Numbered from the stretch's first letter, positions 7,297-45,638 are shown. The stretch is DNA of 54,277 nt from Candidatus Kerfeldbacteria bacterium (GCA_016193315.1 JACPSJ010000001.1:350446-404722), one strand, 5' to 3'. The notes: generated by a model not told the origin, from the letters alone. Program-made: numbers and translations.

Positions 7297-7334
7297 GCGC
7301 CTGCTTTTTGTAACCTGCGGGCCGATAGCGAAAT

Positions 7335-7481
7335 GGGTCGCGGCGGCACCCCGAATGGGGTCGCGGCAGAACTGCTTCTGCCGCGGCCGCCGCGACGGGC
7401 GATTCGATGTTTCGAAGGAACCGAATCGCCCAGGCTCGAAGCCACTTGGCTCTCCATAAAACCAATAACGTGCGGCGCGAC
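7335..7481 (+). repeat. Multi-hairpin structured element, copy 1 (family S)
   Basis: 11-bp GTCGCGGCGGC/GCCGCCGCGAC stem enclosing GAAT-loop and CTGC-loop hairpins, then GGGC..GCCCAGG stem; covarying copy on the minus strand at 45394-45578. Confidence 0.8.
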
Positions 7482-7486
7482 CACAC

Positions 7487-7558
7487 GGGCCCATAGCTCA
7501 ACGGTAGAGCATCTGCCTTTTAAGCAGAGGGTTGGAGGTTCGAGTCCTCCTGGGCTCA
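7487..7558 (+). tRNA. tRNA-Lys(TTT)
   Basis: Cloverleaf: GGGCCCA/TGGGCTC acceptor, TCTGC-CTTTTAA-GCAGA anticodon arm, GGAGG-TTCGAGT-CCTCC T arm; CCA not encoded. Confidence 0.95.
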
Positions 7559-7595
7559 TTTGAAATAGGCCGCACGTTAGTGCGGCGAGAATATA

Positions 7596-7687
7596 GTGCC
7601 CAGAGGACGAGAAGGGCGAGCACGGCTGCCGGTGGCAGGCGAGCGCAAGCCCCGGCCCCGCCGGGGCGAGTCCTCCGCGGGTCACCA
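7596..7687 (+). repeat. tRNA 3'-linked hairpin element ending in a degenerate tRNA 3' end plus CCA (family T)
   Basis: GTGCCCAGAGGAC (antisense to the tRNA 3' end)...CTGCCGGTGGCAG...CGAGTCCTCCGCGGGTCACCA. Confidence 0.7.
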
Positions 7688-7866
7688 GCTTTTTTCAACA
7701 CCAAGAAGCGCCGTAGAAAAATTTGCAATTGTCAATGATCGCAGCGGAATCGCCGGCCGGATTTTAGGGGGCGGTCGAGCCCCTTTCAAAATAGTTCACC
7801 AAGTGGGCCGCGAAGCACCACATCCTAATGTACAAATCCCAATACTAATCTCTACAATTCATTCAT

Positions 7867-8385
7867 CTGGCAGAACTTGAAGACAGCGCACCATTCGAGG
7901 ATCCAGCTGAAGCCGGAGCGCGTGAAGGGCTCCACGCCGATCACCCGGGAGCATTTACACCAGACGAGTTACGACGACTGGTCGAGGTCCCCGACACCGT
8001 TGAAGGAAACCCCTCCTACCGGCCCCGGAAACGTTTGCAGAGGATTTGGGAGCTCGAGATTGCAGCGCTGCCCGACGGGCCAGGGAAGGCAGAAATCATG
8101 GATGCCTATGACCAGCGCGCCCAAGAGCTCCTTGCCGCCGAAATCATTAACCTACCGGAAAAAGCAGAAGTCGAGAGTAACCCGGAGTACCAACCGACAG
8201 CCAGGGTAACCGCGATTGCCGAAGCAATCAGTGCCTTTCCATTTGCCCGAACCGAGACGAAGGAGCGAATGTTGGACTTGGTGAACAGCAAAGCTAAAGG
8301 GATGGGTCTGGACTTGTCGGGCGAAGCTCGTCAAGCCGCGGGGCAGTCGACTTCAGCGCTAAGATATGGCATAATTTTTCAGTGA
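7867..8385 (+). CDS. Hypothetical acidic protein; start uncertain (CTG at 7867 or TTG at 8035)
   Basis: Frame is open from 7849 to 8385; stop overlaps the GTG of the next gene. Confidence 0.45.
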   Translation: MAELEDSAPFEDPAEAGAREGLHADHPGAFTPDELRRLVEVPDTVEGNPSYRPRKRLQRIWELEIAALPDGPGKAEIMDAYDQRAQELLAAEIINLPEKAEVESNPEYQPTARVTAIAEAISAFPFARTETKERMLDLVNSKAKGMGLDLSGEARQAAGQSTSALRYGIIFQ

Positions 8386-10976
8386 CCGCCCCGACCCGAA
8401 TCAAAACACAACCCCCGGACAACAATATTTTCTCCCCCTTCACCGCGCTCTCAGTGCGCGATCTTTCATCACGGTTACAGACCTCAATCGAGAGTGGGCT
8501 GTCAGCGAAGGAAGCCGTGGACAGGTTAGTCAAGTTTGGCCCGAACGAAGTCAAAGCGAAAGAAGAAACGGCCGCCCAAATTCTCGTCCGCCAATGGCGG
8601 TCCCCATTTATTGCCCTGCTGGTCGGAGCGGCCGTGGTCTCGCTGGCGCTCGGCGAACGCATCGATGCGGCATTCATTGTTCTGTTTGTCATCATCAACA
8701 CGCTGCTGGGGTTCTATCAAGAATACCGCTCAGCCCAGGCGCTGCGACTACTGAAACAATACTTGAAAACCAATGTTACTGTTCGACGCGACCGCACCGA
8801 GCAGCTGATCGATAGTCGGCAGGTCGTACCGGGGGATATGATCATGCTCAAAGCCGGGGATACTGCGCCAGCTGATGTCCGGTTGGTCGAGGTTGACGAT
8901 CTGACCGTTGATGAATCCACGCTGACCGGTGAATCAGTACCGATCACCAAGCAATCGGGACCGCTAGATCATCCGACATCCGATCTCTTCCAAGCCATCA
9001 ACATCGTCTTTTCCGGCAGCACGATGATCAAGGGACAAGGCCAGGGCGTGGTCGTGGCCACCGGTCGGCAGTCGATCTTCGGCTCGATCAGCAGTTTGGC
9101 CACGGAGACTGAACGGGTCACGGATTTTCAGCAAGGCATTAATGGTTTCAGCCGTTTCATTCTCCGGATGGTGGCCGTGACCTTAGGCCTGATCATCATA
9201 GCCAATACTTTCTTGAAGGGCGGGGCCGGGATTGGGGAGTTCCTGGTTTTTGCCATCGCCCTGGCCGTCAGCGTCATCCCCGAGGCGTTGCCGGTGGTAA
9301 CTACCTTAGCCATGTCGCGCGGGGCCCTGCACTTGGCCCGCCGAAAAGTAGTGGTCAAACGACTGTCGGCGATTGAAGATTTGGGCAGTATTGAAGTCCT
9401 CTGTACTGACAAAACAGGCACAATTACGGAGAACAACTTAACGGTGTCTGAAGTCCGTGGGCGACCACGGAATGAGTGTCTCCAGGCCGCGGCGGTCGGG
9501 AGTAGTGCCGTCGAGCGAACCACCGACTTGCCCAACAGCTCTTTTGACGTCGCTGTCTGGCAGGCGCTTGATGCAACTGGCCAAGCCGAGGTCAATGCCT
9601 GGGCGGTCAAGCACGTCCTGCCGTTCGATCCGTTCCGGCGGCGTACCACCGTGGCCGTGACGAGGGGCGGGCAGTGGCGGATCATTAGTCGGGGTGCACC
9701 GGAAGTAATTCTTGAACATTGTACTGGGCTGACCTGGCCAGCACGCCAAGAGTGGCTGAGCTGGATTGAGGCTGTCGGCCGCCAGGGACGCCGGATTATG
9801 GCGGTGGCCGAGCGATTTTTCTCGACTAACCCTGGACCGTCAGACCTCGAGGATGAGCACGGTTTAAGCCTGGTGGGAATGATCGCTTTTCATGATCCGT
9901 TGAAACCGACGGCCGCCTCAGCCGTCGAACGAGCCAAGTCACTCGGGGTTCAAGTCAAGATTCTGACTGGGGATAGCCCGGAAGTCGCCGGCGCAGTGGC
10001 TCACCAGGTTGGCTTGATAGCCGCGCCGAGTCGGGTGATGACTGGTCAGCAACTTTTTGCCTTACCACCGCCCGAACAGACCGCCACCGTCTTGAGGCAG
10101 CCTGTCTTTGCGCGCGTTACTCCGGAGGACAAACTGCGGATCATCGGCCTGCTCCAGAAGCAGACTCACGTGGGCTTCTTAGGTGAGGGGGTAAACGACG
10201 CCCCCGCGCTGAAAGTCGCCAATGTTTCCATGGTGGTGGCTGGCGCGGCCGACATCGCCCGCGCCAGCGCCGACATCGTCCTTCTTCAGCGCCACCTTCA
10301 GGTGATCATCACCGGTATCGAAGAAGGACGACAGGTGTTCGCTAACACCATCAAATACATCAAAGCCACGCTGCTTTCGAACTTCGGTAATTTCTACTCG
10401 GTGGCCATCGCCTCGCTTCTGATTCCCTATTTGCCGATGCTACCAATCCAAATTCTGCTCGTCAACCTGCTGTCCGACTTCCCGATGATCAGTATTGCCG
10501 CCGACGCGGTCGATCCTAGCGAGTTACGGCGACCCAAGAGCTACCAAATTCGAGAAGTGGCGCTCTTGGCCACCATCCTCGGCTTAGTGAGCACGGTTTT
10601 TGACTTCGTTTTCTTTGGTCTCTTCTCACGCATCTCACCAGCCGCCCTGCAAACCAACTGGTTCATTGGCAGCATCCTCACTGAGCTGGTGGTCATCTAT
10701 TCTATTCGCACCCGCTTGCCATTCTTCCGCGCCAAACGTCCGCCCGCACTTATTCTGTGGTTGACGATCGCGGCGGCCGTGGTCACCATCGCCTTGCCGT
10801 TGACGAAGCTAGGCCAAACGGTCTTTCGTTTTTCCCGGCCAGAGCCGATCTACTTCTTATGGATCGCAATCATCGTCGTCGGCTACTTCTACGTAACCGA
10901 AGTCGTCAAGCACTTCTACTATCGCTATGTGGTAGGCCGGAGCCGCCATCCGGAACTGGCCTGGGCTAGAAGGTAG
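8382..10976 (+). CDS. P-type cation ATPase, MgtA-like (probably Mg2+)
   Basis: TGES, PEALP, DKTGT, FDPFRRR, SNFGN, PMLPIQILL.NL, FQ/LQTNWF..S. Confidence 0.85.
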   Translation: MTAPTRIKTQPPDNNIFSPFTALSVRDLSSRLQTSIESGLSAKEAVDRLVKFGPNEVKAKEETAAQILVRQWRSPFIALLVGAAVVSLALGERIDAAFIVLFVIINTLLGFYQEYRSAQALRLLKQYLKTNVTVRRDRTEQLIDSRQVVPGDMIMLKAGDTAPADVRLVEVDDLTVDESTLTGESVPITKQSGPLDHPTSDLFQAINIVFSGSTMIKGQGQGVVVATGRQSIFGSISSLATETERVTDFQQGINGFSRFILRMVAVTLGLIIIANTFLKGGAGIGEFLVFAIALAVSVIPEALPVVTTLAMSRGALHLARRKVVVKRLSAIEDLGSIEVLCTDKTGTITENNLTVSEVRGRPRNECLQAAAVGSSAVERTTDLPNSSFDVAVWQALDATGQAEVNAWAVKHVLPFDPFRRRTTVAVTRGGQWRIISRGAPEVILEHCTGLTWPARQEWLSWIEAVGRQGRRIMAVAERFFSTNPGPSDLEDEHGLSLVGMIAFHDPLKPTAASAVERAKSLGVQVKILTGDSPEVAGAVAHQVGLIAAPSRVMTGQQLFALPPPEQTATVLRQPVFARVTPEDKLRIIGLLQKQTHVGFLGEGVNDAPALKVANVSMVVAGAADIARASADIVLLQRHLQVIITGIEEGRQVFANTIKYIKATLLSNFGNFYSVAIASLLIPYLPMLPIQILLVNLLSDFPMISIAADAVDPSELRRPKSYQIREVALLATILGLVSTVFDFVFFGLFSRISPAALQTNWFIGSILTELVVIYSIRTRLPFFRAKRPPALILWLTIAAAVVTIALPLTKLGQTVFRFSRPEPIYFLWIAIIVVGYFYVTEVVKHFYYRYVVGRSRHPELAWARR

Positions 10977-10977
10977 C

Positions 10978-12222
10978 ATGTTTCACCCCCGAAAAATCTT
11001 TCGCCGTATCGGCCCCGGCGTCATCACCGGCGCCTCTGATGATGACCCTTCCGGAATCATCACGTACTCGCAAGCCGGGGCCCAATTCGGCTACGGACTG
11101 CTCTGGCTAGCCGTCTTTACCACGCCGTTGATGATGGCCGTTCAGGAGATGTCGGGCCGCCTGGGGTTAGTCACCGGCCGCGGGTTAGCGTATCTGCTCC
11201 GTCGGCACGTGGCGCCAGCGGTGGCGCTGATTATTTCGCTCTTAGTCCTGGTGGTCAACACGCTTAATGTCGGCGCCGATTTAGGGGCCATGGCCGAGGT
11301 CACGACGCTTTTATGGCCAGGCCCGGCCAGCTGGAACCTGCTCGGCTTTGCGGCCATTATCCTCGGACTTGAAATCTGGTTGACCTACCGGCGTTACGTC
11401 AATATCCTGAAGTGGTTGACCCTGTCACTCTTGACCTATGTGGCCGCGGCGCTGGCGGTGACGACTGACTGGACGGCGATCTTCCAGCAAGCCCTTATTC
11501 CTCACTGGCCGCCGGTCACGGCGTGGGGACTGATCGTGGCCGTACTCGGCACCACCCTCTCTCCCTATCTCTTTTTTTGGCAAGCCTCGGAGGAGGTGGA
11601 AGAGGAGCGTGAAGAGCAACGTCGGGCTCATCGAACCGTACCGATCACACCGCCACGATTATCGGCGATGCGGCGGGATACGGTCTGGGGTATGGTTTTT
11701 TCCAATGTGGTGATGTTCTTTATCATTGTCACGGCGGCTGGCACCCTCCACCAGGCGGGACTAACCACCCTTGAGTCGGCTCGTCAGGCGGCGGAAGCGC
11801 TCCGGCCGGTAGCCGGGCCGCTAACGTTTACTTTGTTCGCCCTCGGCATTATCGGGACTGGCCTGCTGGCGGTACCTATTTTGGCTGGCTCGGCGGCCTA
11901 CGCCGTGGCCGAGGTCTTCGGTTGGCCCGAGGGGTTATCGAAACACGTTCGTCAGGCGCCCGCCTTCTACCTGGTGATCGTCGTCGCCATCGTTTTCGGG
12001 TTGGTGGCGAACGCCGTTGGTTTATCACCGGTTCGTCTCCTGCTATTGACCGCGGTCATGAACGGTTTGCTGGCGCCAGTTATCCTATTCTTCCTCCTTC
12101 GCCTCGCCGACCGACCGAGCGTAGTTGGCGAACACCGCAGCCCGCGGTGGGTCCAGGTTGGTGGCTGGTCAGCGTTCGCCGTGCTGGTGATTGCAGCTAT
12201 CGTCCTTATCAGCCAGTGGTGA
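10978..12222 (+). CDS. NRAMP-family divalent metal transporter
   Basis: GPGVITGASDDDPSGI, QEMSGRLG.VTG.G, GTTLSPYLFFWQ. Confidence 0.88.
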   Translation: MFHPRKIFRRIGPGVITGASDDDPSGIITYSQAGAQFGYGLLWLAVFTTPLMMAVQEMSGRLGLVTGRGLAYLLRRHVAPAVALIISLLVLVVNTLNVGADLGAMAEVTTLLWPGPASWNLLGFAAIILGLEIWLTYRRYVNILKWLTLSLLTYVAAALAVTTDWTAIFQQALIPHWPPVTAWGLIVAVLGTTLSPYLFFWQASEEVEEEREEQRRAHRTVPITPPRLSAMRRDTVWGMVFSNVVMFFIIVTAAGTLHQAGLTTLESARQAAEALRPVAGPLTFTLFALGIIGTGLLAVPILAGSAAYAVAEVFGWPEGLSKHVRQAPAFYLVIVVAIVFGLVANAVGLSPVRLLLLTAVMNGLLAPVILFFLLRLADRPSVVGEHRSPRWVQVGGWSAFAVLVIAAIVLISQW

Positions 12223-12226
12223 ACGA

Positions 12227-15513: not shown

Positions 15514-15663
15514 CGGGAATTAGATCAGACGCTTGTAAACCTGGTGGGTTCGACTTTGAAAGCGGTGGGGCGACGAATGGTTTTTTCGTTTGCGGAATAG
15601 CCATCCGAATGATATAATCAAGACTGCGTTTTCTGCTGACGACATTAGTCGAAATTACGTTTG

Positions 15664-17049: not shown

Positions 17050-17102
17050 CATCCTGGTCCGGCGACCACCAATCTTGAATCCTTAACCTTCCACCCTCAC
17101 TC

Positions 17103-17393: not shown

Positions 17394-17401
17394 GAATTTC
17401 T

Positions 17402-18058: not shown

Positions 18059-18405
18059 ATGGCTGTTCCCGCCAAGGTCACAAAAAAACTCGACCGCGAA
18101 AAAGTGAAATACGAGTTCGTCCCGCACAAAACCGTTTTCACCGTCTACGACTTGGCCCAGACACTGAAGACGAAACTAAACACCATCGCCAAAACCCTGC
18201 TCGTCAAAGCCGACGCCGAGTACCGCCTAGAACTCATTTCAAAACCTCATTTCGGCTGCAAGGCCCGATTTCGGGCTGCGGCTGGCGGCTCGGGCTCAAT
18301 GTATCTCCAATACATTTCGCCCTCCGCCGCAGCGCCTCGCCCGCGAAACCGACCATTTCGCCATGAAAGCAGGTTTTGAAATGAGTTCTAGTCATTCTGC
18401 CGGCT
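18059..18405 (+). pseudogene. 5' remnant of a YbaK/EbsC gene interrupted by the family M element
   Basis: 39/57 residues identical to 18496-18969; VILPA resumes right after the element. Confidence 0.85.
18228..18390. mobile_element. 159-bp MITE-like element, copy 2 (family M)
   Basis: Same TIRs; removing the element and one TA restores CGC CTA GTC (R-L-V). Confidence 0.9.
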
Positions 18406-18495
18406 CCTCGGACAACAGCAAAAACTTCCACTGGAATCCTAACTCTTCAATCCTAAATCCTTAATCCTCAATCTTACTACCTAAATCACAACCCC

Positions 18496-18969
18496 ATGCC
18501 CGTCCCAGCCAAAGTGAAGAATTACCTGAGCAAAATGAAAATCCAGCACCGTCTGGTGCCGCATAAAACAGTCTTCACGGTCTACGACTTGTCTCAAACG
18601 CTCAAAGTGAAGCTCAACGAGATCGTCAAAACCCTGCTGGTCAAAGCTGACCAAGAATACAAACTAGTCCTCTTACCGGCTCACCGACGACTGAATCTAG
18701 AGGCCTTGAAACGGCTGCTCGGTGCCAAAAAAGTCAGTTTGGCCTCGGAAGGAGAAATGACCAAGATGATGAAAGTCAAGCCGGGCGCCTTAACCCCCTT
18801 CGGCCAACTCTACAAGTTGGGGGTGGTGGTCGACCAGGGACTGGTCAAAGCGGAACAGATGATTTTCGGCGCCGGCAGCTTCACCGAGTCAATCAAGATG
18901 AAAGTCAAAGATTTTCTCCGCCACGAACAACCAACGGTCGGCCGCGTCTCCGAAGCGCCAAAGAAATAA
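18496..18969 (+). CDS. YbaK/EbsC (ProX-like) aminoacyl-tRNA deacylase family protein
   Basis: KTLLVK, LA.E.E, PGALTPFG, GAGS. Confidence 0.88.
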   Translation: MPVPAKVKNYLSKMKIQHRLVPHKTVFTVYDLSQTLKVKLNEIVKTLLVKADQEYKLVLLPAHRRLNLEALKRLLGAKKVSLASEGEMTKMMKVKPGALTPFGQLYKLGVVVDQGLVKAEQMIFGAGSFTESIKMKVKDFLRHEQPTVGRVSEAPKK

Positions 18970-18974
18970 TTCTC

Positions 18975-21062: not shown

Positions 21063-22097
21063 ATGCCGGCCCGCCCCATTCGCATCGCCATCAACGGTTT
21101 TGGTCGCATCGGCCGGAACGCTTTCAAGGTGGCCCTCGAGAAACCGGAGCTCGAGGTGGTGGCGATCAACGAACTCGGCAGCCTGGAAGTGATGGCCCAC
21201 CTGCTGCGGTACGACACCGCCTACGGACGATACCGTCGTCAGGTGACGTACGGTCGTGATTGGCTACAAGTCGATGATCGTCGGATTCATTTCCTATCGG
21301 TCAAAGAACCGTCCACCCTGCCCTGGCGGGAGCTGGCGATCGACGTTGTCCTTGAATCAACTGGTCGGTTCACCAATGACGGCGCGGCCAAGGTCCACCT
21401 CGGCGCTGGCGCCAAGCGAGTCATCGTCTCGGCGCCGACCAAGGGCGGAGACATCGCCACCTATCTGATCGGCGTCAATGATGGAGACAATAAAGGTGAC
21501 GGTGTTTTTTCCAACGCCTCCTGCACCACCAACTGCGTGGCGCCAGTGACACGAGTCATCCACCATGAGTTCGGAATTGCCAAAGCGACGATGACCACCG
21601 TCCACTCCTACACCGCCGAGCAGAATCTGGTCGACGGCCCAGTACCGCCGCTCCACCCCGATCTCCGCCGCGCCCGCGCGGCCGCCGAAAACATCGTCCC
21701 CACCACCTCGGGGGCGGCCATCTCGACCGGCGAAGTCCTGCCTGAGTTAAAAGGCAAGTTCGATGGCTACGCCTTGCGTGTGCCGACGCTGGTGGTCTCG
21801 TACACCGATTTCACGTTCCTGACCAAGAAACGGACCACGGTCAAACAGGTGAACGAGGCGTTCAAGCGTTGGTCCGTCCGTCCTGACTTGCAAGGTATCT
21901 TGGCTTACACCGAGGAACCGCTGGTGTCCTCCGACTTCAAGGGCCATCCGGCCTCAGCCATCGTTGACTTGCCGCTGACGAAGGTCATTGACGGCGATTT
22001 AGTTAAAGTGGGGGCGTGGTACGATAACGAGTGGGGCTATTCCAATCGTTACGTCGAGCAAGCCATTATGGTCGGTCGGCAGCTGCTCGGCTCGTAG
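21063..22097 (+). CDS. gap: Type I glyceraldehyde-3-phosphate dehydrogenase
   Basis: INGFGRIGR, SNASCTTNC, WYDNEWGYS. Confidence 0.97.
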   Translation: MPARPIRIAINGFGRIGRNAFKVALEKPELEVVAINELGSLEVMAHLLRYDTAYGRYRRQVTYGRDWLQVDDRRIHFLSVKEPSTLPWRELAIDVVLESTGRFTNDGAAKVHLGAGAKRVIVSAPTKGGDIATYLIGVNDGDNKGDGVFSNASCTTNCVAPVTRVIHHEFGIAKATMTTVHSYTAEQNLVDGPVPPLHPDLRRARAAAENIVPTTSGAAISTGEVLPELKGKFDGYALRVPTLVVSYTDFTFLTKKRTTVKQVNEAFKRWSVRPDLQGILAYTEEPLVSSDFKGHPASAIVDLPLTKVIDGDLVKVGAWYDNEWGYSNRYVEQAIMVGRQLLGS

Positions 22098-22179
22098 CCC
22101 GGCGGCCAATATGGTATACTGAGCGCGAACATATCCCCAGGCCCCGGCGGGCCACCAAAGGCGAAAGGAGGTGATCGGC

Positions 22180-22392
22180 ATGTGGAAATATGAAGTCTCG
22201 TCGCTGGCTAAAGCCTTTTTCTGGTTCGGTTTGGTGAACGGCGTCCTCGCCTTCTGGGTCCAGTACGGTTTTGTCTACCAGACCGGCACCCAACAGCTCT
22301 TCGGTGACCCGGTCTTTCACCTCCTGCTCGGCAGCTTGAGCATGCTGGCTGGCGTTTTCCTCAATACGGAACGGACCAACCGGTTGCTCTAA
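22180..22392 (+). CDS. Small two-TM membrane protein
   Basis: AAAGGAGGTG RBS before the ATG; two hydrophobic segments; followed by a strong hairpin at 22403-22432. Confidence 0.6.
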   Translation: MWKYEVSSLAKAFFWFGLVNGVLAFWVQYGFVYQTGTQQLFGDPVFHLLLGSLSMLAGVFLNTERTNRLL

Positions 22393-22430
22393 TTTCGATA
22401 TTTCGTTTCAGCCGCAGCCGCGGCTGAAAC

Positions 22431-22601
22431 GACCAAGTAGGAGCCGCTCGGTCCGGCAAAGCCTGTGACCTCGCGGCGCCGCTATTCCTAACGCGGCCTC
22501 CCCTTCGACTACGCTCAGGGACGGCCGCGTTTTGAGGAACACCTCCTGGCCAGTGTGATGTGGCAGCCGGACTTGACTGACCAGCTGACACTAGCTTGGC
22601 C
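22431..22601. ncRNA. Candidate ~170-nt rod-shaped ncRNA (6S-like shape) with a REP-like apical hairpin
   Basis: Nested stems CCAAG/CTTGG, GTCCGGC/GCCGGAC, TTCCT/AGGAA, AACGCGGCC/GGCCGCGTT, TCCCC/GGGGA separated by large internal loops. Confidence 0.3.
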
Positions 22602-22619
22602 AGTCGGTTTTGGGGCCGC

Positions 22620-22648
22620 TTGCCAAATCTTTCACTCTCCGCTATCCT
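22620..22648 (+). promoter_or_regulatory. Sigma70-type promoter for the GIY-YIG/tRNA-Glu unit
   Basis: TTGCCA-17bp-TATCCT, 15 nt before a tRNA-Glu 5'-end copy. Confidence 0.55.
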
Positions 22649-22807
22649 GGTCACGTTTTCCATGCCGCCTTCGTCTCCGGCGACGCCCCGCCCAGCGGGG
22701 CTGCCGGACCCGGCTCCGCCGGGTAGGCCGGTCGACTTGTCTGGCTACGCTAGGAGCAACAAGTTCTTCCACAAAGCAGGGCGGGCTCCGGTCGAGCACC
22801 TTTTCCC

Positions 22808-23083
22808 ATGTCCTGTTACGTTTACGTCATTAGAAGTATCCGTTTCAAACGGCTATACTATGGTAGCTGTGAAAACCTGCCAAATCGTTTAGGTCAGCAT
22901 AATGCAGGACAAGTTCGATCTACGAGGCCGTATCGACCATGGGAGCTAATCCGAACGGAAGAATTCAAAACCAGAGGTGAGGCTCGGAAGAGAGAACAAC
23001 AACTAAAGCGGTCGGGGGTCGCAAGGAAACAGCTGAAACGAGATCCAAGTAAGTACGTGCCGCCATCGTCTAGCCCGGCCTAG
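22808..23083 (+). CDS. Standalone GIY-YIG nuclease (YhbQ/Slx1-like)
   Basis: YVYVI...LYYG.....R..QHN.G...T...RPW.L...E.F....A..RE..LK; stop lies inside the tRNA-Glu gene. Confidence 0.88.
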   Translation: MSCYVYVIRSIRFKRLYYGSCENLPNRLGQHNAGQVRSTRPYRPWELIRTEEFKTRGEARKREQQLKRSGVARKQLKRDPSKYVPPSSSPA

Positions 23084-23136
23084 GACACATGGTTCTCAGC
23101 CATGGAACTGGGGTTCGAATCCCCATGGCGGTACCA
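23059..23136 (+). tRNA. tRNA-Glu(CTC)
   Basis: GCCGCCA/TGGCGGT acceptor, CATGG-TTCTCAG-CCATG anticodon arm, GGGG-TTCGAAT-CCCC T arm, encoded CCA. Confidence 0.93.
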
Positions 23137-23185
23137 CCAATGTATTCGAAGTGAGTGACTTCGAAGTAACCTCATGCGAAGTAGA

Positions 23186-23298
23186 GTGCCGGGATTCGAA
23201 GGGCAGGAGTGAGGGCGAACGAAGCGAAGCCCGAACGTCCGGCGAGGCGCCGGTGGCGCGTCGCCGCTGCCCAGGATCGAATCCCCATGGCGGTACCA
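23186..23298 (+). repeat. tRNA 3'-linked hairpin element ending in a 22-bp exact duplicate of the tRNA-Glu 3' end (family T)
   Basis: 23277-23298 equals 23115-23136; antisense GGGATTCGAA; GGGCAG/CTGCCC stem; GCGCCGGTGGCGC hairpin. Confidence 0.8.
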
Positions 23299-23424
23299 AT
23301 TGGGAAATGAGCGAAAATCGGCCGCGCTCGACCACCCGATTTTCGCTTCGTAGCCGAGTTCTCTCCCTTTGCGCCCGTTTGGGGCGCGGGCGAACGCGGG
23401 CTTTTTTCTCCGTAACCCAAAACT

Positions 23425-31368: not shown

Positions 31369-31740
31369 CAACAACGCCGCCCGTCGCTTCACGGTTCGCA
31401 TCAGTTCTTCAATCACGCCGTCCAGGTTCTTGAATACGTCCGAATTGGAGAATCGAACAATCTGGATATTCGGGTGGGCCAGATAGTTTTCGCGTCCCTG
31501 ATCATACTATTGCCCAGCCGGCTCGAAATGCTGTCCTCCGTCGAGTTCAACAGCTAATCGCAACTCCGGACAGTAGAAATCCACGACATAACGTCCGATA
31601 CCATGCTGCCGTCGAAACTTGTAACCCAACAGTCCGCGGCCTTTCAAATATGACCACAGAATGATCTCTGGTTTCGTCATCTCACGCCGAAGTTTGCGTC
31701 GGACAGGATTGTACTCTGAGCGATTGTGGATTGGTGGCAT
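31348..31740 (-). pseudogene. DUF559 (Vsr-like PD-(D/E)XK) endonuclease with an in-frame TAG at 31507-31509
   Basis: RKLRREMT.PE..LW..L...KFRRQH.IG.Y.VDFYC....LAVELDG.QH; resumes after the stop as YDQ.RE.YL....I.IVRF.N..V. Confidence 0.85.
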
Positions 31741-36508: not shown

Positions 36509-36633
36509 GGGACCCTCCGGGGTGGAAAGAACTTCAGTGGATGCCGTTGTGATCAACGCAGAGACTAGCAGATAGGAGCCAGCCAGTCAAGGACCCGAAT
36601 GCGGCTGAACGGGGATAGTGCTATAGTCAGCTC

Positions 36634-37176: not shown

Positions 37177-37188
37177 GAAAAACCCGAC

Positions 37189-37647: not shown

Positions 37648-37869
37648 GGCCTTTGGTTGGCCTCTCCTCCGGGTATGATGCCCGCGCGCGACCGCGCCGG
37701 GGCTCTCCTAGGCCTCGATGCTGCACCCAGCCTCCCGCCCACTTCAGCGAGAACAAAAGGGTTCCCGCCACAGCGTAACCGGCATTCTATATCATTGCTA
37801 ATCTGTGTCAAGTGGCGACTCAGGGCAGATTTGCTTGCGGCTGGTGGTTGAGGAGCGTATGGTAGCGGT

Positions 37870-38544: not shown

Positions 38545-38801
38545 CGAATGAACTCGTCCCTTACCGCCAGATCCTGGCCGCGGCAAGAATCAAGCGGTTC
38601 CGCGACTGGGAACCGAAGATACGCTTGCTGGCTCAGGAAATAAATACCGGTCGCCTGGCGCTGCCACCTGACCCGCAACTTCGAGGCTCACTCCTGGCCA
38701 TGCGTGAGACGAGACAGGGGATTGATATGTCGACCGTTGATTCGAACGTCCGGATGCTGGCCCAGGCGGTTTGGGATGCGCAACATGAACCTCAAGAATA
38801 G
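38541..38801 (+). CDS. Small helical hypothetical protein
   Basis: ATGA overlap with the upstream gene. Confidence 0.55.
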   Translation: MTNELVPYRQILAAARIKRFRDWEPKIRLLAQEINTGRLALPPDPQLRGSLLAMRETRQGIDMSTVDSNVRMLAQAVWDAQHEPQE

Positions 38802-38927
38802 TACTCTCTTGTAGAACGCGACGGGTCGTAGCAACAAACGTCACCATGGTCAGTTAAATACATTGACATCCACCAGGTTTCGTGGTATACTCTAAGTGTC
38901 ACAAAGAAAAAAAATCAAAAAAAATGT

Positions 38928-40103: not shown

Positions 40104-40188
40104 CTCCCAATCAAGGGTGCGCGTGGCCGATTTCAGGCCGCAGCTGGTTAGTGTTATACTTTGGTTATTCGTCATTAGCGTTTAGACT

Positions 40189-40473
40189 ATGAGTCCGCAA
40201 CAGATTCACATCAAGGCCCACGACAACGTCTTACAGGGCGTCTACGCCAACGTCTTGCAGATCTCCCATACCAAGGAAGAAGTGGTTTTTGACTTCCTCA
40301 ATGTCATGCCGCCACAAGGGCAGCTCGTCAGCCGGGTCATTACTAGCCCCGGCCATGCCAAACGCATTTTGACCGCCTTGGCCGACAATCTCAAGCGCTA
40401 CGAAGCGCAGTTTGGGGCCGTGACCGCGGCCAAACCGCCGGCCGGAGAATTCGGCTTCACCCCGACGGGATGA
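40189..40473 (+). CDS. DUF3467 family protein
   Basis: GVYAN...ISHT.EE..FDF....SRVI.SP.HAKR...AL..N...YE..FG. Confidence 0.85.
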   Translation: MSPQQIHIKAHDNVLQGVYANVLQISHTKEEVVFDFLNVMPPQGQLVSRVITSPGHAKRILTALADNLKRYEAQFGAVTAAKPPAGEFGFTPTG

Positions 40474-40550
40474 CCCCGGTAGAAGCCCGGCCAACATGTT
40501 CCACAATACACCAAACGCGCCACGCCCAATAAAGAGAGCTTCTAACGGGG
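40474..40550. repeat. Family L element, copy C
   Basis: CCCCGGTAGAAGC ... GCTTCTAACGGGG (13 bp, 1 mismatch). Confidence 0.6.
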
Positions 40551-41665
40551 GGATCTCCACCAATCTCCATCCCTGGACAGCCAAGCTGCTGTGGTTTCTC
40601 CTGCCGAGCCTGCTCGGGGCAAGTGTCTGGTGGTACGTGGTCAGTCAAACGCTTCAAGGACGAGTGGCTTTTACCAGCGCCGGATTGACGACCTTGCTAA
40701 CCTTCATCGTCTTTGGGCTTTTCTCGTTTGGTCTATGGGTTAGCGGGTTGGGGCTCAGCACGTACTTAGCCAACTGGCGGATCGTCCGGTTCGTCTCCGC
40801 CGGAATTGTCAGTCTGCCGCTGATGGCCTTCTTTCCGCCCCAACCACTGACCGTTGGATTGGCCGTCGGTTTGTGGCTCGTCCTCTGGTGGGGGGCGGAA
40901 CGGTTTGCGACCGACGCCCACAGCCGGCTACAACTTAAACCCCATCTGTCCTCAGGCTGGGCATTCCCCACGGTCATTGTACTGGTCATGGTGGTGGTGT
41001 CGCTGTTGTATTACCAGCAGCTTCGCGGTGCCACCCGAACCGCCTCCGAACTGTCGGCCCGGCTGGCTAGTCAGACGGTCGGCTTGTTAGAGCGGTTCAT
41101 TCCGCTGCTGACGAAGGAGTATCGGCCGGATATGACGGTTGACGAAGTCATCGGCCTACAGATACCAACCGCCGCCGAACTGTTGAAAGATATTCAGTTC
41201 GACGCGCTCAACCAAACTGAGCTGGAAGAACGGCTGCGCCAAACGCTAGCCAGCGTAGAGGGGTTTGATGCCCAGCAATTCTCATTGGGCCCGACCGCCA
41301 ACCAAACTGACTTGGAACGCCAACTCGAAACCCAACTCGAGCAGGCGCGGCGCCAGTTGTCTGAGCAAGTTCGTCAAAGCCTGTCATCGCAATTCGGCGT
41401 GCCGATCAGCGGCCAGGCCACTGCCCACGATGTGCTGACCGACATCGTCAATCATCAGTTTAATCGCTATCTCAGTCGGTATGTGACGGTCATCCCCTGG
41501 CTGCTGGCGGTTGCCCTGTTTTTCATTCTCCGGGTTTTCTCCGGCCTGTTTCTCATCGCCACCACTTGGTTGGGGTGGCTGCTATTTTGGCTGTATCGCC
41601 ACCTTCACATCATCCACCTCACGCACGAGACGGTTCCGGCCGAGCGCGTCGAGTGGAGCCACTGA
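40496..41665 (+). CDS. Polytopic membrane protein with a soluble coiled-coil loop
   Basis: Multiple TM segments; the only upstream ATG lies inside family L copy C. Confidence 0.65.
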   Translation: MFHNTPNAPRPIKRASNGGISTNLHPWTAKLLWFLLPSLLGASVWWYVVSQTLQGRVAFTSAGLTTLLTFIVFGLFSFGLWVSGLGLSTYLANWRIVRFVSAGIVSLPLMAFFPPQPLTVGLAVGLWLVLWWGAERFATDAHSRLQLKPHLSSGWAFPTVIVLVMVVVSLLYYQQLRGATRTASELSARLASQTVGLLERFIPLLTKEYRPDMTVDEVIGLQIPTAAELLKDIQFDALNQTELEERLRQTLASVEGFDAQQFSLGPTANQTDLERQLETQLEQARRQLSEQVRQSLSSQFGVPISGQATAHDVLTDIVNHQFNRYLSRYVTVIPWLLAVALFFILRVFSGLFLIATTWLGWLLFWLYRHLHIIHLTHETVPAERVEWSH

Positions 41666-41734
41666 CCTCACCCCGCCCTGCGGGCACCCCTCTCCTTCGG
41701 CGTTCGCGGGAGGAGAGGGGCCGGGGGGCGAGGT
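41665..41734. repeat. REP-like palindrome (family D variant)
   Basis: ACCTCACCCC..CCCCTCTCC..GGAGAGGGG..GGGGCGAGGT. Confidence 0.7.
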
Positions 41735-41771
41735 TAGCACTCTTGCCTCGAGAGTGCTAATTTGCTATCCT
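41734..41771 (+). promoter_or_regulatory. Perfect CIRCE overlapping the dnaJ promoter
   Basis: TTAGCACTC-TTGCCTCGA-GAGTGCTAA (41734-41760); TTGCCT-17bp-TATCCT. Confidence 0.92.
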
Positions 41772-41781
41772 GAAGATTGTT

Positions 41782-42864
41782 ATGGCGGAAGACTACTACC
41801 AGCTGTTGGGGGTCGATCGACAGGCCAGCGCCGAAGAGATCAAGCGGGCATTTCGCGCGAAGGCCCACCAGCACCACCCGGATAAAGCCACCGGCGACAC
41901 GGAGGCCTTTAAGCGGATCAACGAAGCCTACCAGGTCCTGAGCGACCCGGCCAAACGGCGTCAATACGATCAATTCGGCACCACCTTTGACCAAGCCGGA
42001 CGTGGCGGGTTTGGTGGCTTCCAAGACTTCGGGGGCAGCCAATGGTCGAACGTCAATGTTGACTTTGGGGATTTCGGCGACCTGTTCGGTGACTTGTTTG
42101 GACTTGGTGGGTCGCGCCGGACACGGCCCAGTGCCGCCCGTGGTCAGGATATTGAGGCGCAAGTAACCATCTCGTTTCGTCAGGCCATCTTTGGCGGCCA
42201 GGAAACGATCGAGCTGAAACACCATCGTCCCTGCGCCCGGTGCGGCGGCGTGGGGGCTGAACCCGGGACCGGTCGTCAGACGTGTTCGACCTGCCAAGGG
42301 ACCGGCCAGGTCCAGCAAGCGCAGCGAACGTTCCTAGGCACCTTCCAAAGCGTTGCTACCTGTCCGACCTGTCAGGGCGAGGGCCGGGTGGTCGGCACGC
42401 CCTGCCGGACCTGCCGCGGCGACGGCCGGCAACTGAAGACTGAACGGCTGAACGTGAAGATTCCGGCTGGTATTCGCCGCGGACAGCGGATCAGGTTGGC
42501 CGGGCAGGGTGAAGCTGGCCGTCGCGGTGTGACAGCCGGCGATCTCTACTTGGTAGTTGAGGTGGAGCCCGACCGGGAATTCGAACGGCAAGACGATGAT
42601 ATCCTCAGCACGATTGAGATCCCCATTTCGACCGCCACCCTCGGTGGGGCGGTCGAAGTAAAAACCATTGATGGGCCGGTGAGCTGGAAAATCCCAGCCG
42701 GCACGCCAAGTGGAAAAGCATTCAATATCCGCGGCCATGGAGTCCCCCACTTGCGTGGTAGCGGTCGTGGCGATCACCGCGTTACGGTCAATGTGAGGAT
42801 CCCTGGGAAGCTCTCCACCCGGGCCAAGAAATTGTTTCGCGAACTGGCCGACGAAGGCGTCTAA
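41782..42864 (+). CDS. dnaJ: Chaperone DnaJ
   Basis: J domain HPD, G/F region, four CxxCxGxG repeats. Confidence 0.97.
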   Translation: MAEDYYQLLGVDRQASAEEIKRAFRAKAHQHHPDKATGDTEAFKRINEAYQVLSDPAKRRQYDQFGTTFDQAGRGGFGGFQDFGGSQWSNVNVDFGDFGDLFGDLFGLGGSRRTRPSAARGQDIEAQVTISFRQAIFGGQETIELKHHRPCARCGGVGAEPGTGRQTCSTCQGTGQVQQAQRTFLGTFQSVATCPTCQGEGRVVGTPCRTCRGDGRQLKTERLNVKIPAGIRRGQRIRLAGQGEAGRRGVTAGDLYLVVEVEPDREFERQDDDILSTIEIPISTATLGGAVEVKTIDGPVSWKIPAGTPSGKAFNIRGHGVPHLRGSGRGDHRVTVNVRIPGKLSTRAKKLFRELADEGV

Positions 42865-42922
42865 CGCTTGTCGGCCGAGCGAAAGTATGCTATACTATGG
42901 TCGTCACACAAACAAAACGCTA

Positions 42923-43522
42923 ATGTTTCTCAGCGCCATTCAATTGGCCGGTATTGATTTGACCAACGAAGCCACCTCGGCCAAGAATCTGGTGGCAAAT
43001 ATTGATTGGTCCAAGCCAACCTGGGATCTGTTCATCATCCTGTTTTTTATCATTGCCGCGCTGCTGTACGGTTTGAGTCTCGGCCGCGATCGGGTCCTGG
43101 TCATACTCGTCTCAGTTTACATGGCCCTGGCTGTCGTCAATACCGCGCCCTATATCGGCAACTACCAAGCTGACATCGGCGTTGACCAGTTTTTTGTCTT
43201 TCGGATTTCAGCCTTTGTGGTCGTGTTTATTGCTCTCTTCTTCCTGATGTCGCGTTCAGCCCTGCTGTCGACGATCGCCTCATCGAACACCCAGGGTGCT
43301 TGGTGGCAGGTTTTGATCTTCAGTCTACTCCACGTTGGCCTTTTGATTTCGATCACCCTGTCTTTCTTGCCGCCGACAGCAGCCGAGAAATTAGCGCCCC
43401 TGACGCAGAAAATCTTTGTTGGCGACTTCGGCCGTTTCTTTTGGATCGTGACGCCGATCGTGGCCATGATTCTGGTGAAGGGCGGCGCAGCCGACAAGAA
43501 GAAGTTTAAGTACGATCTTTGA
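42923..43522 (+). CDS. Polytopic membrane protein
   Basis: About five TM helices; TATACT upstream; terminator downstream. Confidence 0.7.
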   Translation: MFLSAIQLAGIDLTNEATSAKNLVANIDWSKPTWDLFIILFFIIAALLYGLSLGRDRVLVILVSVYMALAVVNTAPYIGNYQADIGVDQFFVFRISAFVVVFIALFFLMSRSALLSTIASSNTQGAWWQVLIFSLLHVGLLISITLSFLPPTAAEKLAPLTQKIFVGDFGRFFWIVTPIVAMILVKGGAADKKKFKYDL

Positions 43523-43524
43523 CC

Positions 43525-43553
43525 AAAACTGCCCGCCATACGCGGGCAGTTTT
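43525..43553. terminator. Bidirectional-type terminator
   Basis: AAAACTGCCCGC/GCGGGCAGTTTT. Confidence 0.7.
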
Positions 43554-43673
43554 GCAGTCCCAGGTGTCGCTCAGACCAAAATGAATTTGGTCTTCGCGAC
43601 GCTATCCTTTTCCGGTGCGCCTCGCTAACGCTCGGCCCGCTACCAAACAGCTCTTTCCATCCAAGGGGGCATC

Positions 43674-44324
43674 ATGTTACTGACCGGTTTTCTTGGCTTG
43701 TTTCTCGGTTGCTTGGTGGCCACAATCGGAGCCTGGAAGGACAGCCGATGGGAACCGTTTCGGTGGGGGACCTTCTGGCGTTCGCCCATCGTCACGTGCC
43801 TGGTAGCGTTGCTACTGGCAACCAAATTTCCGAACCAACCCAAACTTTTACTTGGCTTGGCGGCCGTCGCTCTGGAACGACTGCTCGTTGAAACCTGGAA
43901 AGGATGCTTACGCCAGAAGCCCTCTAAGTTTGTTCAACCTGAGCGGGACACGCGGTGGCTGAGACAACAACTATCGGCCCTCAGTCGTCATCGGCAGGTT
44001 CGACAAACTTTGGTCATTGCCATCGTTTGCGGCTACGTTGTCCTGTACGGTGTCGATGAGTATCAGCAGCTCGTCAACGAGGGGGTCACCGCCGGAACCT
44101 GGGCTTACATCTGGTATTGTCTCTGGTGCGCCCTGGTCTTCATCCCCCTCGGTGGCCTCGGGCTGATGGCCGGACTTCTACTCCGCCACCGCGGATTGAT
44201 CAGGTGTTCAGCGTTCATGACGGCCCTCCCGACCTATGCTCTGACGCTGGCCGTGGTCTTGACGTCGAAATTCAGCATCCCCCTGGCGTCCATTTTCTCC
44301 ATCCGCCTCCCGACTGCCCAATAG
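43674..44324 (+). CDS. Polytopic membrane protein
   Basis: Hydrophobic segments; stop inside the ACTGCCC/GGGCAGT-T5 terminator. Confidence 0.6.
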   Translation: MLLTGFLGLFLGCLVATIGAWKDSRWEPFRWGTFWRSPIVTCLVALLLATKFPNQPKLLLGLAAVALERLLVETWKGCLRQKPSKFVQPERDTRWLRQQLSALSRHRQVRQTLVIAIVCGYVVLYGVDEYQQLVNEGVTAGTWAYIWYCLWCALVFIPLGGLGLMAGLLLRHRGLIRCSAFMTALPTYALTLAVVLTSKFSIPLASIFSIRLPTAQ

Positions 44325-44361
44325 GGCAGTTTTTTAGATAAACCGTCCTGGACGTAGCCAA

Positions 44362-45366
44362 TCAGTCTGATTCAGATACGGCTGTCTGCTTTTCGATATT
44401 CTTTATCAGCTCGTCAACATCGGCCAGTGTATTGATCCGCACCGCTTGGTTGCGAAACTCACTGGCCCGCGGGAACCCGCTGACGTACTTGGCCAGGTGT
44501 TTGCGGAATTCAATCAGACCTCGTTCGCCTCTCGTTTTCACCACCAGCCGCGCATGATCGATTATGGTCTGTTTGAGGTTACGCCAATCAACTGATTCGT
44601 AACCCCCAGCTTTTAATAACCGTTTGGTTTGTTGAAAAATCCATGGCTGGCCCCAAGCGCCGCGGGCAATGCCAACCCCATCGGCCATAGTTTCCGACAA
44701 CATCTGCGGCACACGCTCAGGCGTAAAAATCCCGCCGTTGGCCAGGACTGGCCCGTGAAAGTGCTTTTTGACCTGACGAATCATGGCCGCGTCGACTTCG
44801 CCGTGATGGCCTTGTTCGTATGACCGGCCATGGACCATGACGGCGGCCACTGGCAGTCCGTGGAGGGCGGCAATGAAATCAACAGCCGTGTGAACGTCGG
44901 CTTGGTTAGCATCCAAAGATTGCCGTTCTTTCCGAATGCTAGTGCGGATTTTCATGGAGACGGGGAGAGTGGTGTTCTCGAGCGCCAATCCAACCAGCCG
45001 CCGGGCGTACTGAGGATCACGAAGGAGTGCCACGCCAGCCCCCTTGGCCACTACCTTTCGCGCTGGGCAGCCGAAGTTGATATCGAGGCCGGCAAAACCC
45101 ATCTGGCCGATGAGTTTAACCGCTTGGACAAAGGCCTCTGGCTCGCGTCCAAAAATCTGGGCTATGACCGGCCGCTCGGAAGGGTTAAACTCCAAACGTT
45201 CCATCGCCCGCCGGGCGCGATGAAAGATCGCCTCAGCCGCAGTGAATTCGGTGTAAACGACATCGGCGCCCCAAGTCTTGGCGATTTGGCGGAAGGCGGT
45301 GTCGGTGACCCCCTCCATGGGGGCTAAAGCAAGTATTGGTTTTTCCAGACTGGACCAGAAGTTCAT
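44362..45366 (-). CDS. dus: tRNA-dihydrouridine synthase
   Basis: LAPMEGVTD.AFR, YTEF, QIFG, DINFGCP, VHGR, ANGG, ARG..G.PW.F, RKH. Confidence 0.95.
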   Translation of the reverse strand: MNFWSSLEKPILALAPMEGVTDTAFRQIAKTWGADVVYTEFTAAEAIFHRARRAMERLEFNPSERPVIAQIFGREPEAFVQAVKLIGQMGFAGLDINFGCPARKVVAKGAGVALLRDPQYARRLVGLALENTTLPVSMKIRTSIRKERQSLDANQADVHTAVDFIAALHGLPVAAVMVHGRSYEQGHHGEVDAAMIRQVKKHFHGPVLANGGIFTPERVPQMLSETMADGVGIARGAWGQPWIFQQTKRLLKAGGYESVDWRNLKQTIIDHARLVVKTRGERGLIEFRKHLAKYVSGFPRASEFRNQAVRINTLADVDELIKNIEKQTAVSESD

Positions 45367-45393
45367 GGCGCTCGGCTGGTCATGTGTCGGGGG

Positions 45394-45578
45394 CCTGGGC
45401 GCCGCCTGCTCCTCCGAAGCACGGGGGCGGCCGTCGCGGCAGTAGGTAAGAATAAAAAATGTTGTTGGCCGCGTTCCTGGGCCTCGCCGTCCCGACTACG
45501 GGACAGGGCTCGGCCCGTCGCGGCGGGACGAAAGCAAAGCAGTTTGCTTTCTTTGCCTTCGGCAACCCGCCGCGACCC
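45394..45578 (-). repeat. Multi-hairpin structured element, copy 2 (family S), with a repeated GCGAC..GCCCAGG half-unit
   Basis: Minus strand: GGGTCGCGGCGGG-TTGCC GAA GGCAA-GAAAGCAAA CTGC TTTGCTTTC-CCCGCCGCGAC-GGGC..GCCCAGG. Confidence 0.8.
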
Positions 45579-45638
45579 TGCGATCGGAGCTAAGGCCAGT
45601 ATCGGCTTCTTCAGTGGTAGCCTAAAGTTGGTGGGCAT
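45576..45638 (-). pseudogene. Diverged 5' remnant of a dus gene
   Basis: MPTNFRLPLKKPILALAPIAG versus the intact MNFWSSLEKPILALAPMEG. Confidence 0.75.

Follow-up and report, generated by a model that had tools for sequence, protein, structure and literature searches.

Split genes beside complete copies of themselves in a Kerfeldbacteria genome: candidate replacement cassettes and their link to small GIY-YIG nucleases

The window analysed here, a stretch of 54,277 nucleotides (nt) of Candidatus Kerfeldbacteria DNA, corresponds to positions 350446-404722 of contig C1 of the genome under study (G000: 1.15 Mb, 58% G+C, 96% complete, 48 tRNA genes). At four loci of the window, tRNA-Lys, ybaK, tRNA-Glu and dus, a complete gene stands next to pieces of an older allele of the same gene, and short inserts, several of them structured, lie at the breaks (Table 1). 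All six architectures of this kind that an earlier inspection of the bare DNA (hereafter the sequence-only reading) had described at these genes were recovered, each at its position. We describe here these gene wrecks, their counterparts elsewhere in G000 and in 61 related genomes, and the small GIY-YIG nuclease genes that accompany some of them.

Table 1. Features at the four loci of the window (positions counted from its first nucleotide; modules A and B are the two recurrent structured elements described in the text, and R1 and R2 their covariance models)
Locus	Feature	Position	Strand	Basis
tRNA-Lys	5' piece of older tRNA-Lys-like allele (acceptor 5' strand to D-loop GG)	7319..7336	+	14/18 identical to tRNA-Lys positions 1-18
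tRNA-Lys	Module B copy, fused to D-loop GG of older allele	7335..7435	+	nhmmer E=5e-20; R2 98.1 bits
tRNA-Lys	Probable remainder of older allele: T-loop remainder, acceptor 3' strand, CCA	7436..7456	+	read from sequence, inferred, unscored
tRNA-Lys	Complete tRNA-Lys(ttt), CCA not encoded; 11-nt inverted repeat around gene	7487..7558	+	ARAGORN; Rfam 75 bits
tRNA-Lys	T-stem stub and degenerate A-like hairpin insert	7596..7666	+	GCCGGTGGC hairpin loop as in module A (by eye)
tRNA-Lys	3' piece (T-loop to CCA) of older tRNA-Lys allele	7667..7687	+	15/18 identical (7667-7684), then CCA
ybaK	5' fragment of older ybaK allele	18059..18235	+	40/59 first residues identical to complete gene; weak Pfam tRNA_edit match
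ybaK	157-nt inverted-repeat element (MITE, see text) at end of ybaK fragment	18236..18392	+	13 genome copies, 86-100% identity
ybaK	AT-rich leader preceding complete ybaK	18393..18495	+	32 nt at 91% identity to duplicated 23S rRNA region, contig C6
ybaK	Complete ybaK (aminoacyl-tRNA editing domain)	18496..18969	+	PF04073 E=4.9e-28
tRNA-Glu	5' piece (acceptor to D-stem) of older tRNA-Glu allele	22664..22681	+	local alignment to tRNA-Glu positions 1-21
tRNA-Glu	GC-hairpin-rich filler	22682..22807	+	27-nt hairpin also at tRNA-Phe locus, 93-96% identity
tRNA-Glu	Small free-standing GIY-YIG nuclease gene	22808..23083	+	domain 22808-23050; PF01541 E=2.1e-15, 57 bits
tRNA-Glu	Complete tRNA-Glu(ctc), CCA encoded	23059..23138	+	ARAGORN 23059-23136; Rfam 51 bits
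tRNA-Glu	Module A (three-way junction) within T-loop of older allele's 3' piece	23201..23275	+	R1 88.6 bits
tRNA-Glu	3' piece of tRNA-Glu (T-loop to CCA)	23274..23298	+	24/25 identical; 22/22 from T-loop on
dus	Complete dus (tRNA dihydrouridine synthase)	44362..45366	-	PF01207 E=5.4e-64
dus	Partial second module B	45394..45443	-	weak nhmmer match E=0.078
dus	Module B, fused to end of dus 5' piece via common GGGTC	45475..45578	-	nhmmer E=4.5e-19; R2 96.1 bits
dus	Older dus allele, 20-codon 5' piece ending at APME/G site	45579..45638	-	translation and alignment

At the tRNA-Lys locus the first 7 nt of the upstream piece (7319-7336) are, as judged by eye, complementary to positions 7446-7452, and model R1 gives no match to the hairpin insert at 7596-7666. 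At the tRNA-Glu locus the reading frame of the GIY-YIG gene extends into the complete tRNA-Glu gene.

Such wrecks are common among the tRNA genes of G000. A scan of tRNA flanks, in which a match meant a score of at least 30 (reversed-flank controls reached at most 26), found collinear partial copies beside 24 of the 48 tRNA genes, and on both sides at three. All eight upstream pieces start at tRNA position 8 or earlier, 16 of the 19 downstream pieces end no more than 6 nt from the tRNA 3' end, and the breaks map to the D-loop region, to the anticodon loop or to the variable/T-loop region. By blastn, 26 tRNA fragments lie outside tRNA genes in G000, all except one no more than about 300 nt away from a same-strand tRNA. 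In G003, a genome from a different genus, flank pieces are found at 11 of 39 tRNAs. Inverted repeats of at least 8 nt between leader and trailer bracket 18 of the 48 inner or intact tRNAs of G000, as against 1% of random sites.

The two outer pieces can lie on either side of the complete gene: positions 1-39 of tRNA-Tyr in G003 lie upstream and positions 40-87 downstream of the complete gene, and tRNA-Thr(ggt) has a 5' half 23 nt upstream and a 3' half 13 nt downstream of it. At Arg(gcg), Ser(gct) and Thr(ggt) the acceptor strands of the two outer pieces pair without a mismatch, yet the stems that they form differ from that of the inner tRNA by 1-4 base pairs. Stems that are complementary yet diverged are impossible for a dead copy, which indicates that the alleles diverged while both were functional, in different lineages. 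What these loci hold is a complete and, by all appearances, often foreign inner tRNA sitting inside a split older allele. Since the complete copy is often another allele than the broken one, it must have been imported, and the earlier view that these are not fresh tandem duplications is borne out.

Presence and absence can be followed between genera at the rpmG/tRNA-Trp locus, which is empty in G002 and differently filled in G000, G001, G003, G007, G009 and G010. G007 has a tandem tRNA-Trp copy; in G001 and G003 a 3' part from another allele, its anticodon or T loop occupied by a GC hairpin, comes after the complete gene; in G010 rpmG is followed by a GIY-YIG gene, a tRNA-Trp with 78% identity to the query and then a 3' part typical of the family (95%).

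An origin of the 3' pieces from cDNA of mature tRNA was considered and rejected: the repeat at locus L026 continues into a gene flank that does not read CCA, and the tRNA-Gln piece lacks CCA in the same way as its gene. Several other tRNA remains were noted in G000. An orphan pseudo-tRNA with the anticodon loop CGT (C1:738920-739074) lies far from intact tRNAs and ends in a module B copy where the T-arm should start. Downstream of the intact tRNA-Arg(tcg) are at least three 3' pieces, interrupted in turn by modules B, A and B (C1:160720-161400). A tandem pair of tRNA-Asn(gtt) genes has a module B copy in between (C4:64359-64614), the 3' end of which may supply the 5' part of the second gene. 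At tRNA-Ser(cga) the neighbour, at a distance of about 300 nt, is a tyrosine recombinase gene (C5:5923-6402 and C5:6709-6798), which may represent an ordinary integrase-type element.

Protein genes are affected as well. The dus fragment of the window retains KPILALAP despite synonymous changes. In G003 two serial units, each made of a 20-codon 5' piece and a full-length module B, precede the complete dus; each has its own start codon, ends at the identical ...APME codon and joins module B through GGGTC, and the three dus N-termini of this genome differ from each other by many substitutions. Break codon and GGGTC join are identical in the window and in G003, that is, in two genera. Three serial units of 5' piece and module B occur at msrA in G000, two units at a Y-family polymerase gene (both broken after the same Gln codon, each with a hairpin), and the same architecture is present at the L,D-transpeptidase, ABC ATPase and AHSA1-like genes of G000. 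Such repeated breakage at one codon, both in series and between two genera, speaks for a process that is site-specific. The sequence-only reading had noticed that every target was a tRNA or a tRNA enzyme and had allowed for coincidence. The observation holds within the window and fails elsewhere, at the protein genes just named; as these are unrelated to tRNA, the tRNA-enzyme theme of the window (ybaK and dus) is a coincidence, whereas tRNA genes themselves are clearly the main targets.

Two gene insertions in G000 lie at duplicated gene ends. A two-gene cassette, by eye similar to hicB/hicA, lies within the 5' end of the AHSA1-like gene (C4:27270-28040), where about 50 nt of the gene start are duplicated and nearly identical; the first reading frame of the cassette matches no Pfam family. 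Behind the ABC-ATPase gene lies a methyltransferase gene (C1:679800-682400), the 3' end of the ATPase gene being duplicated with about 73% protein identity, and an open reading frame (ORF) resembling a Y1 transposase directly adjoins this insertion.

Module A (73-81 nt) folds into a three-way junction and is present in eight strong copies and one weak copy in G000 and in 16 of the 61 related genomes. Its pairing is supported by covariation: across 27 distinct sequences 96.7% of the cells pair, with double changes in 18 of 23 pairs, a level reached by none of 500 shuffles and set against 30-58% in slid controls. The module sits in a tRNA 3' piece that lies downstream of an intact tRNA, within the T-loop or, less often, the D-loop of that piece, and the spacer is 60-69 nt in 16 of 20 loci. 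In 17 of the 20 units the repeated tRNA part begins at position 53-57 and continues up to the very 3' end, and in 11 of these it is identical. A derivation of the spacer from a decayed tRNA 5' part was dismissed (mean cognate score 7.05 versus 6.88 for non-cognate tRNAs).

Module B measures about 100 nt and contains a conserved AACTGCTT hairpin loop. There are 19 copies in G000, 21 of the 61 genomes possess it, and 11 of the 20 predicted pairs show compensatory changes. By-eye readings indicate both its polarity and its junction microhomologies: in G000 the fragment is always 5' and the complete gene always 3' of the module (dus, msrA three times, the L,D-transpeptidase gene, tRNA-Lys and tRNA-Ser), and module and fragment are joined via a common GG or GGGTC. 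At 22 loci in other genomes a tRNA was found within 300 nt in 17 cases, a significant flank repeat in 10, and one or the other in 18.

Modules A and B are found almost exclusively at gene wrecks. At the gathering and E-value thresholds of Rfam only the two tRNAs were matched in the window, neither module being recognised. GC hairpins with YCCCGC...GCGGGR stems occur at many breaks and also bracket many intact tRNAs. Covariance-model and profile scans of G000 and its 61 relatives thus uphold the view of the inserts as recurrent families of small structured elements. Their supposed unity fared less well: the GGGC...GCCCAGG module said to be common to four inserts exists as a terminal motif, and the inserts that carry it actually belong to two separate covariance-model families (A and B), one more being a degenerate copy of A-like type, while the inserts as a whole comprise at least five types (module A, module B, GC hairpins, the 157-nt element at ybaK and the AT-rich leader) rather than one system.

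The insert at ybaK stands apart. It is short, multi-copy and non-coding and has terminal inverted repeats, which qualifies it as a miniature inverted-repeat transposable element (MITE), and its metagenome depth is about ten times that of its flanks. A flank duplication accompanies only 1 of 12 tested copies, namely the one at ybaK. A further copy (window positions 4060-4214, 93% identical) has no flank duplication. In the leader 18393-18495 no significant ybaK homology was detected, and a by-eye impression that the older copy resumes past the MITE proved unsupported (score 17 versus 16 in the control). At C6:1500-1960 a duplication of about 300 nt, by eye similar to 23S rRNA, adjoins the AT-rich segment also found in front of the complete ybaK; this stretch may be an rRNA insertion with partial duplication.

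Besides uvrC, G000 has five small GIY-YIG genes, four of which lie 21-186 nt from wreck-bearing tRNAs: Glu(ttc), Glu(ctc) (the window copy), Gln(ctg) and Pro(cgg). On the strength of its PF01541 match and conserved catalytic residues, the window protein (81 residues, 22808-23050) is a member of the GIY-YIG superfamily; Y6, Y17, G19, R27, H31 and E51 are invariant in 20 sequences, and NCBIfam has no model matching these proteins. The Gln cassette, consisting of nuclease gene and tRNA, lies in the D-loop of an older allele and has a perfect inverted repeat at its ends (stem of 14 bp by scan and 15 bp by eye). Of the 61 related genomes, 54 have homologues of these nuclease genes, a single genome holding as many as 10. 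Among 29 loci examined outside G000, one per genome, 20 have a tRNA within 150 nt, directly downstream and on the same strand in 17. Seventeen GIY-YIG/tRNA loci were analysed for pieces (L050 was excluded, its tRNA call being gone when the contig is read as linear): a 5' tRNA piece lies just upstream of the nuclease gene in 9 and a 3' piece downstream in 8, with control scores of at most 22.

The nucleases also follow the identity of their tRNA neighbours. The closest homologues of the window gene are all located upstream of tRNA-Glu. On a nuclease tree of moderate support, built from related and hence non-independent genomes, the identity of the neighbouring tRNA changes 8 times, where 7 is the fewest possible and shuffling gives 11.5 on average; none of 200 shuffles gave so low a number. 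All eight Glu-linked proteins form one group (88/90 support), and three Ala-linked proteins from three bacterial families group together. A homologue with 36% identity was also found in a different phylum, on a contig of an Omnitrophota metagenome-assembled genome, 21 nt upstream of tRNA-Glu(ctc) (L073, 1201-1540). Small GIY-YIG genes are therefore strongly linked to the architecture, in G000 as in the 29 other genomes, and they may mobilise it, as the sequence-only reading suggested. The co-occurrence likewise envisaged for DUF559 did not materialise, as none of its three G000 copies lies beside a tRNA or a gene wreck; one of these Vsr-like endonuclease genes is in the window itself (31390-31701, minus strand), its reading frame interrupted by a TAG. 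G000 also contains two reverse-transcriptase genes (C5:12637-13086 and C1:1246-1683).

In general terms, these loci are probably the work of site-specific selfish cassettes that bring along their own copy of the gene they enter. Selfish DNA would enter a conserved gene at a fixed site, and the cell would survive through the spare copy carried along, which would be a whole tRNA in the case of a tRNA gene and a fresh 5' or 3' end, complete with a start of its own, in the case of a protein gene; the older allele would be left as collinear pieces and decay. A GIY-YIG nuclease would cut the cassette-free allele in the DNA encoding a tRNA loop, and repair of the break would copy the cassette from the filled allele, the old gene pieces serving as homology arms. 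Most cassettes would since have lost the nuclease gene, and the GC hairpins and modules A and B would fill or cap the break points. The arrangement itself, its return to fixed sites, the contrast between inner and outer alleles, the differences in occupancy from genus to genus and the linkage of nuclease and tRNA genes are observed. Cleavage by the nuclease, homing through break repair and the part played by the modules are what we infer here, and whether the GIY-YIG nuclease is indeed the driver of the replacement appears to us evenly balanced. Homing of replacement cassettes would nonetheless be the simplest account of nested tRNAs, foreign inner alleles, fixed sites, serial arrays and nuclease linkage taken together, and it gains support from fungal mitochondria, in which the elements known as mORFs behave by such homing, according to the account given in PMC3630166.

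Several observations weigh against this interpretation. A nuclease gene is present at only 4 of the 24 affected tRNA loci, and it is missing from the Lys, ybaK and dus sites as well as from every protein-gene case. The GIY-YIG proteins (about 70-90 residues) consist of the catalytic domain without a DNA-binding domain, and sequence-specific cutting is therefore not expected from such a protein alone. Their adjacency to tRNA-Glu across families could in part be inherited synteny. The role assigned to the modules is a guess, and helix mismatches in module A, which show no strand bias (9 G-T versus 9 A-C), are compatible with action as DNA as well as RNA. Module A units are moreover reminiscent of att sites, having a direct repeat of 19-24 nt from the T-loop to the exact 3' end, and G000 harbours two Y1 (IS200-like) transposase genes, which could move hairpin elements and drag gene ends with them.

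A bolder version of the cassette hypothesis, which we put forward tentatively and with more doubt than confidence, would have the 80-residue GIY-YIG nucleases act in lineages dedicated to a single tRNA identity each. By putting their own and often foreign copy in the place of the resident tRNA gene, these lineages would drive the horizontal replacement of tRNA genes across Patescibacteria and beyond. Because the nuclease lacks a DNA-binding domain, we propose that what it recognises may be the structure of its target DNA and not the sequence, in the form of cloverleafs or hairpins extruded by tRNA genes and by modules A and B.

The Y1 transposase genes raise the question of whether the arrangement could stem from insertion by an HUH/Y1 (IS200/IS605-like, RAYT-like) or other transposase, an explanation we regard as rather unlikely. 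The modules and hairpins would then be non-autonomous palindromic elements inserted beside a short target motif, and right-end cleavage of the element at the same motif within an adjacent gene copy would carry the gene end along, giving the order old end, module, new end at a fixed site. This would fit the constant polarity of module B, its copy number and its spread among genomes, the serial arrays at one site and helices that are almost purely Watson-Crick, without strand bias in module A; one of the two Y1_Tnp-like genes even adjoins the ABC-ATPase gene with the duplicated 3' end. No transposase gene adjoins any copy of module A or B, however, the inverted repeats around inner tRNAs vary between cassettes, and the target motifs have been recognised by eye only; the linkage of GIY-YIG genes to tRNAs and the match between nuclease lineage and tRNA identity would be left unexplained. 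Those same regularities bear on an account that dispenses with targeting altogether and that also seems unlikely: genes would be transferred with one homologous and one illegitimate junction, or duplicated in tandem and then decay, palindromic repeats of MITE or REP type would settle in the dead pieces since elsewhere they are lethal, and the GIY-YIG genes would be bystanders. The MITE, with 13 copies and a single flank duplication among those tested, behaves in this way, and module A lies within the T-loop of a piece whose sequence continues to either side of it; in G016 a tRNA-Glu 3' piece lies 69 nt downstream without any module A, G007 has a plain tandem tRNA-Trp duplication, and cargo insertions such as the hicAB-like and methyltransferase genes also come with duplicated gene ends. 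Random junctions would not, however, produce breaks in the same codon or loop in serial units and different genera, so regular a spacing of module A, or nuclease genes that adjoin tRNAs at 20 of 29 loci.

For the module A units in particular, tyrosine-integrase relics come to mind, that is, miniature elements without integrase, with the intact tRNA as attL and the displaced 3' piece as attR, piled into arrays by serial integration. Integration is described as a textbook source of tRNA fragments in PMC9897764; the direct repeats of module A units end precisely at the tRNA 3' end, tandem arrays exist at Gly(ccc), Arg(tcg) and in G011, and G000 has two tyrosine recombinase genes. Both of these genes lie elsewhere, though, the inserts measure 13-400 nt with no integrase inside, and the would-be core site is interrupted by module A; as integrases leave neither upstream 5' pieces nor whole tRNAs nested in split ones, and the same architecture is seen at the 5' ends of protein genes, we consider this origin quite improbable. 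Even less probability attaches to functional RNAs, whereby the outer halves would be split or intron-containing tRNAs, or the modules with the tRNA ends selected regulatory or processing RNAs. The structural conservation of modules A and B and their orientation along with the tRNAs, the excess of leader-trailer inverted repeats and the frequent identity of 3' pieces to the neighbouring tRNA are what one would expect of them, whereas the outer copies have broken T-loops, missing arms and hairpins within loops, the distribution among genomes is patchy, no splicing endonuclease gene was found (PF01974 is unmatched in this 96% complete genome) and no intron or ribozyme family of Rfam matched. There remains the suspicion that a metagenome assembly had joined co-occurring strains, all the more as Logan contigs break, exclusively, within conserved inner tRNAs and within the high-copy ybaK MITE. 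Window DNA is contained in four groundwater-metagenome runs, all from one study, and no RNA run is listed among them. In runs X1, possibly the source of the assembly, and X2 every fragment-insert junction at the Glu and Lys loci is crossed by single Logan contigs without a difference (contig 7 of X1 covers 21512-23352 with zero differences, and contigs of X2 cover the same junctions), and in the four runs read depth is equal on both sides of the junctions. Junction-crossing contigs and equal depth make a chimera very unlikely and, with the same architectures in dozens of other assemblies, hardly credible; the duplications, for which such a check had been called for, are no assembly artefact.

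If the replacement-cassette interpretation is true, selfish DNA would have a third way, besides introns and inteins, of residing in essential bacterial genes, namely by means of a spare copy. It would also explain the abundance of small GIY-YIG genes in these reduced genomes and provide a mechanism for horizontal replacement of tRNA genes, with a bearing on tRNA-based phylogeny. A set of natural, very small and apparently site-specific nucleases would become available. For annotation, it matters that tRNA fragments get miscalled as tRNAs; modules A and B represent two new conserved nucleic-acid structures.

A literature search that covered papers outside their supplementary files turned up neither bacterial GIY-YIG/tRNA cassettes nor modules A and B. 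The closest parallel is provided by the fungal mORFs (Allomyces atp6; Glomus atp6, atp9, cox2 and nad3), in which, as PMC3630166 outlines, an endonuclease ORF (LAGLIDADG or GIY-YIG) inserts into a conserved gene together with a foreign gene end, the native end persisting, diverged, just downstream; inserted and native ends are of different phylogenetic origin. As in mORFs, the insert here carries a copy of the displaced gene part with the native part adjacent, the inner copy appears to be of different origin from the remnant (judging from the acceptor stems and from the 78% versus 95% at the G010 tRNA-Trp), and filled and empty alleles exist at rpmG/tRNA-Trp, here between genera and not within one population. 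Unlike mORFs, the cassettes reside in a bacterial chromosome, with tRNA genes as the main targets and a whole tRNA carried along; in protein genes it is more often the 5' than the 3' end that is renewed; the nuclease consists of an 80-residue catalytic domain only, most units lack it, and the breaks carry conserved multi-hairpin modules.

A further parallel is SegB, a free-standing GIY-YIG homing endonuclease of the phage T4 tRNA cluster, which, in the outline given by PMC2330249, cuts a related genome and thereby favours the inheritance of its own tRNA region. The GIY-YIG genes studied here likewise lie among tRNA genes. SegB, unlike the cassettes, acts between co-infecting phages through gene conversion and leaves no nested gene wrecks. 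It also has DNA-binding parts.

Williams (2002) reportedly described integrase islands in tRNA genes that entail partial tRNA duplication. Such islands are kilobases long and encode an integrase and, unlike the cassettes, leave neither upstream 5' pieces nor a whole tRNA inside a split one. According to PMC9897764, tRNA fragments are known to derive from integrase-borne islands and from CRISPR spacers, and the islands share with our loci the direct repeat of the tRNA 3' part from the T-loop or anticodon loop and the tandem arrays. As for the modules, they differ from MITEs, repetitive extragenic palindromic (REP) sequences and Rickettsia palindromic elements in being branched and having conserved junction sequences. 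All three of those classes are short, multi-copy, palindromic and non-autonomous and can sit inside genes; unlike the cassettes, they bring no spare copy of the gene they interrupt.

The inserts known from rRNA genes of the Candidate Phyla Radiation (CPR) lie within the rRNA gene proper and are excised from its transcript. The rRNA genes of CPR bacteria are invaded by insertion sequences with homing endonucleases, as reported in PMC11270868. These inserts and the cassettes described here would have in common the same bacterial radiation and the invasion of conserved RNA genes by endonuclease-bearing DNA; in the cassettes, unlike in the rRNA inserts, the interrupted copy is dead and the spare copy works.

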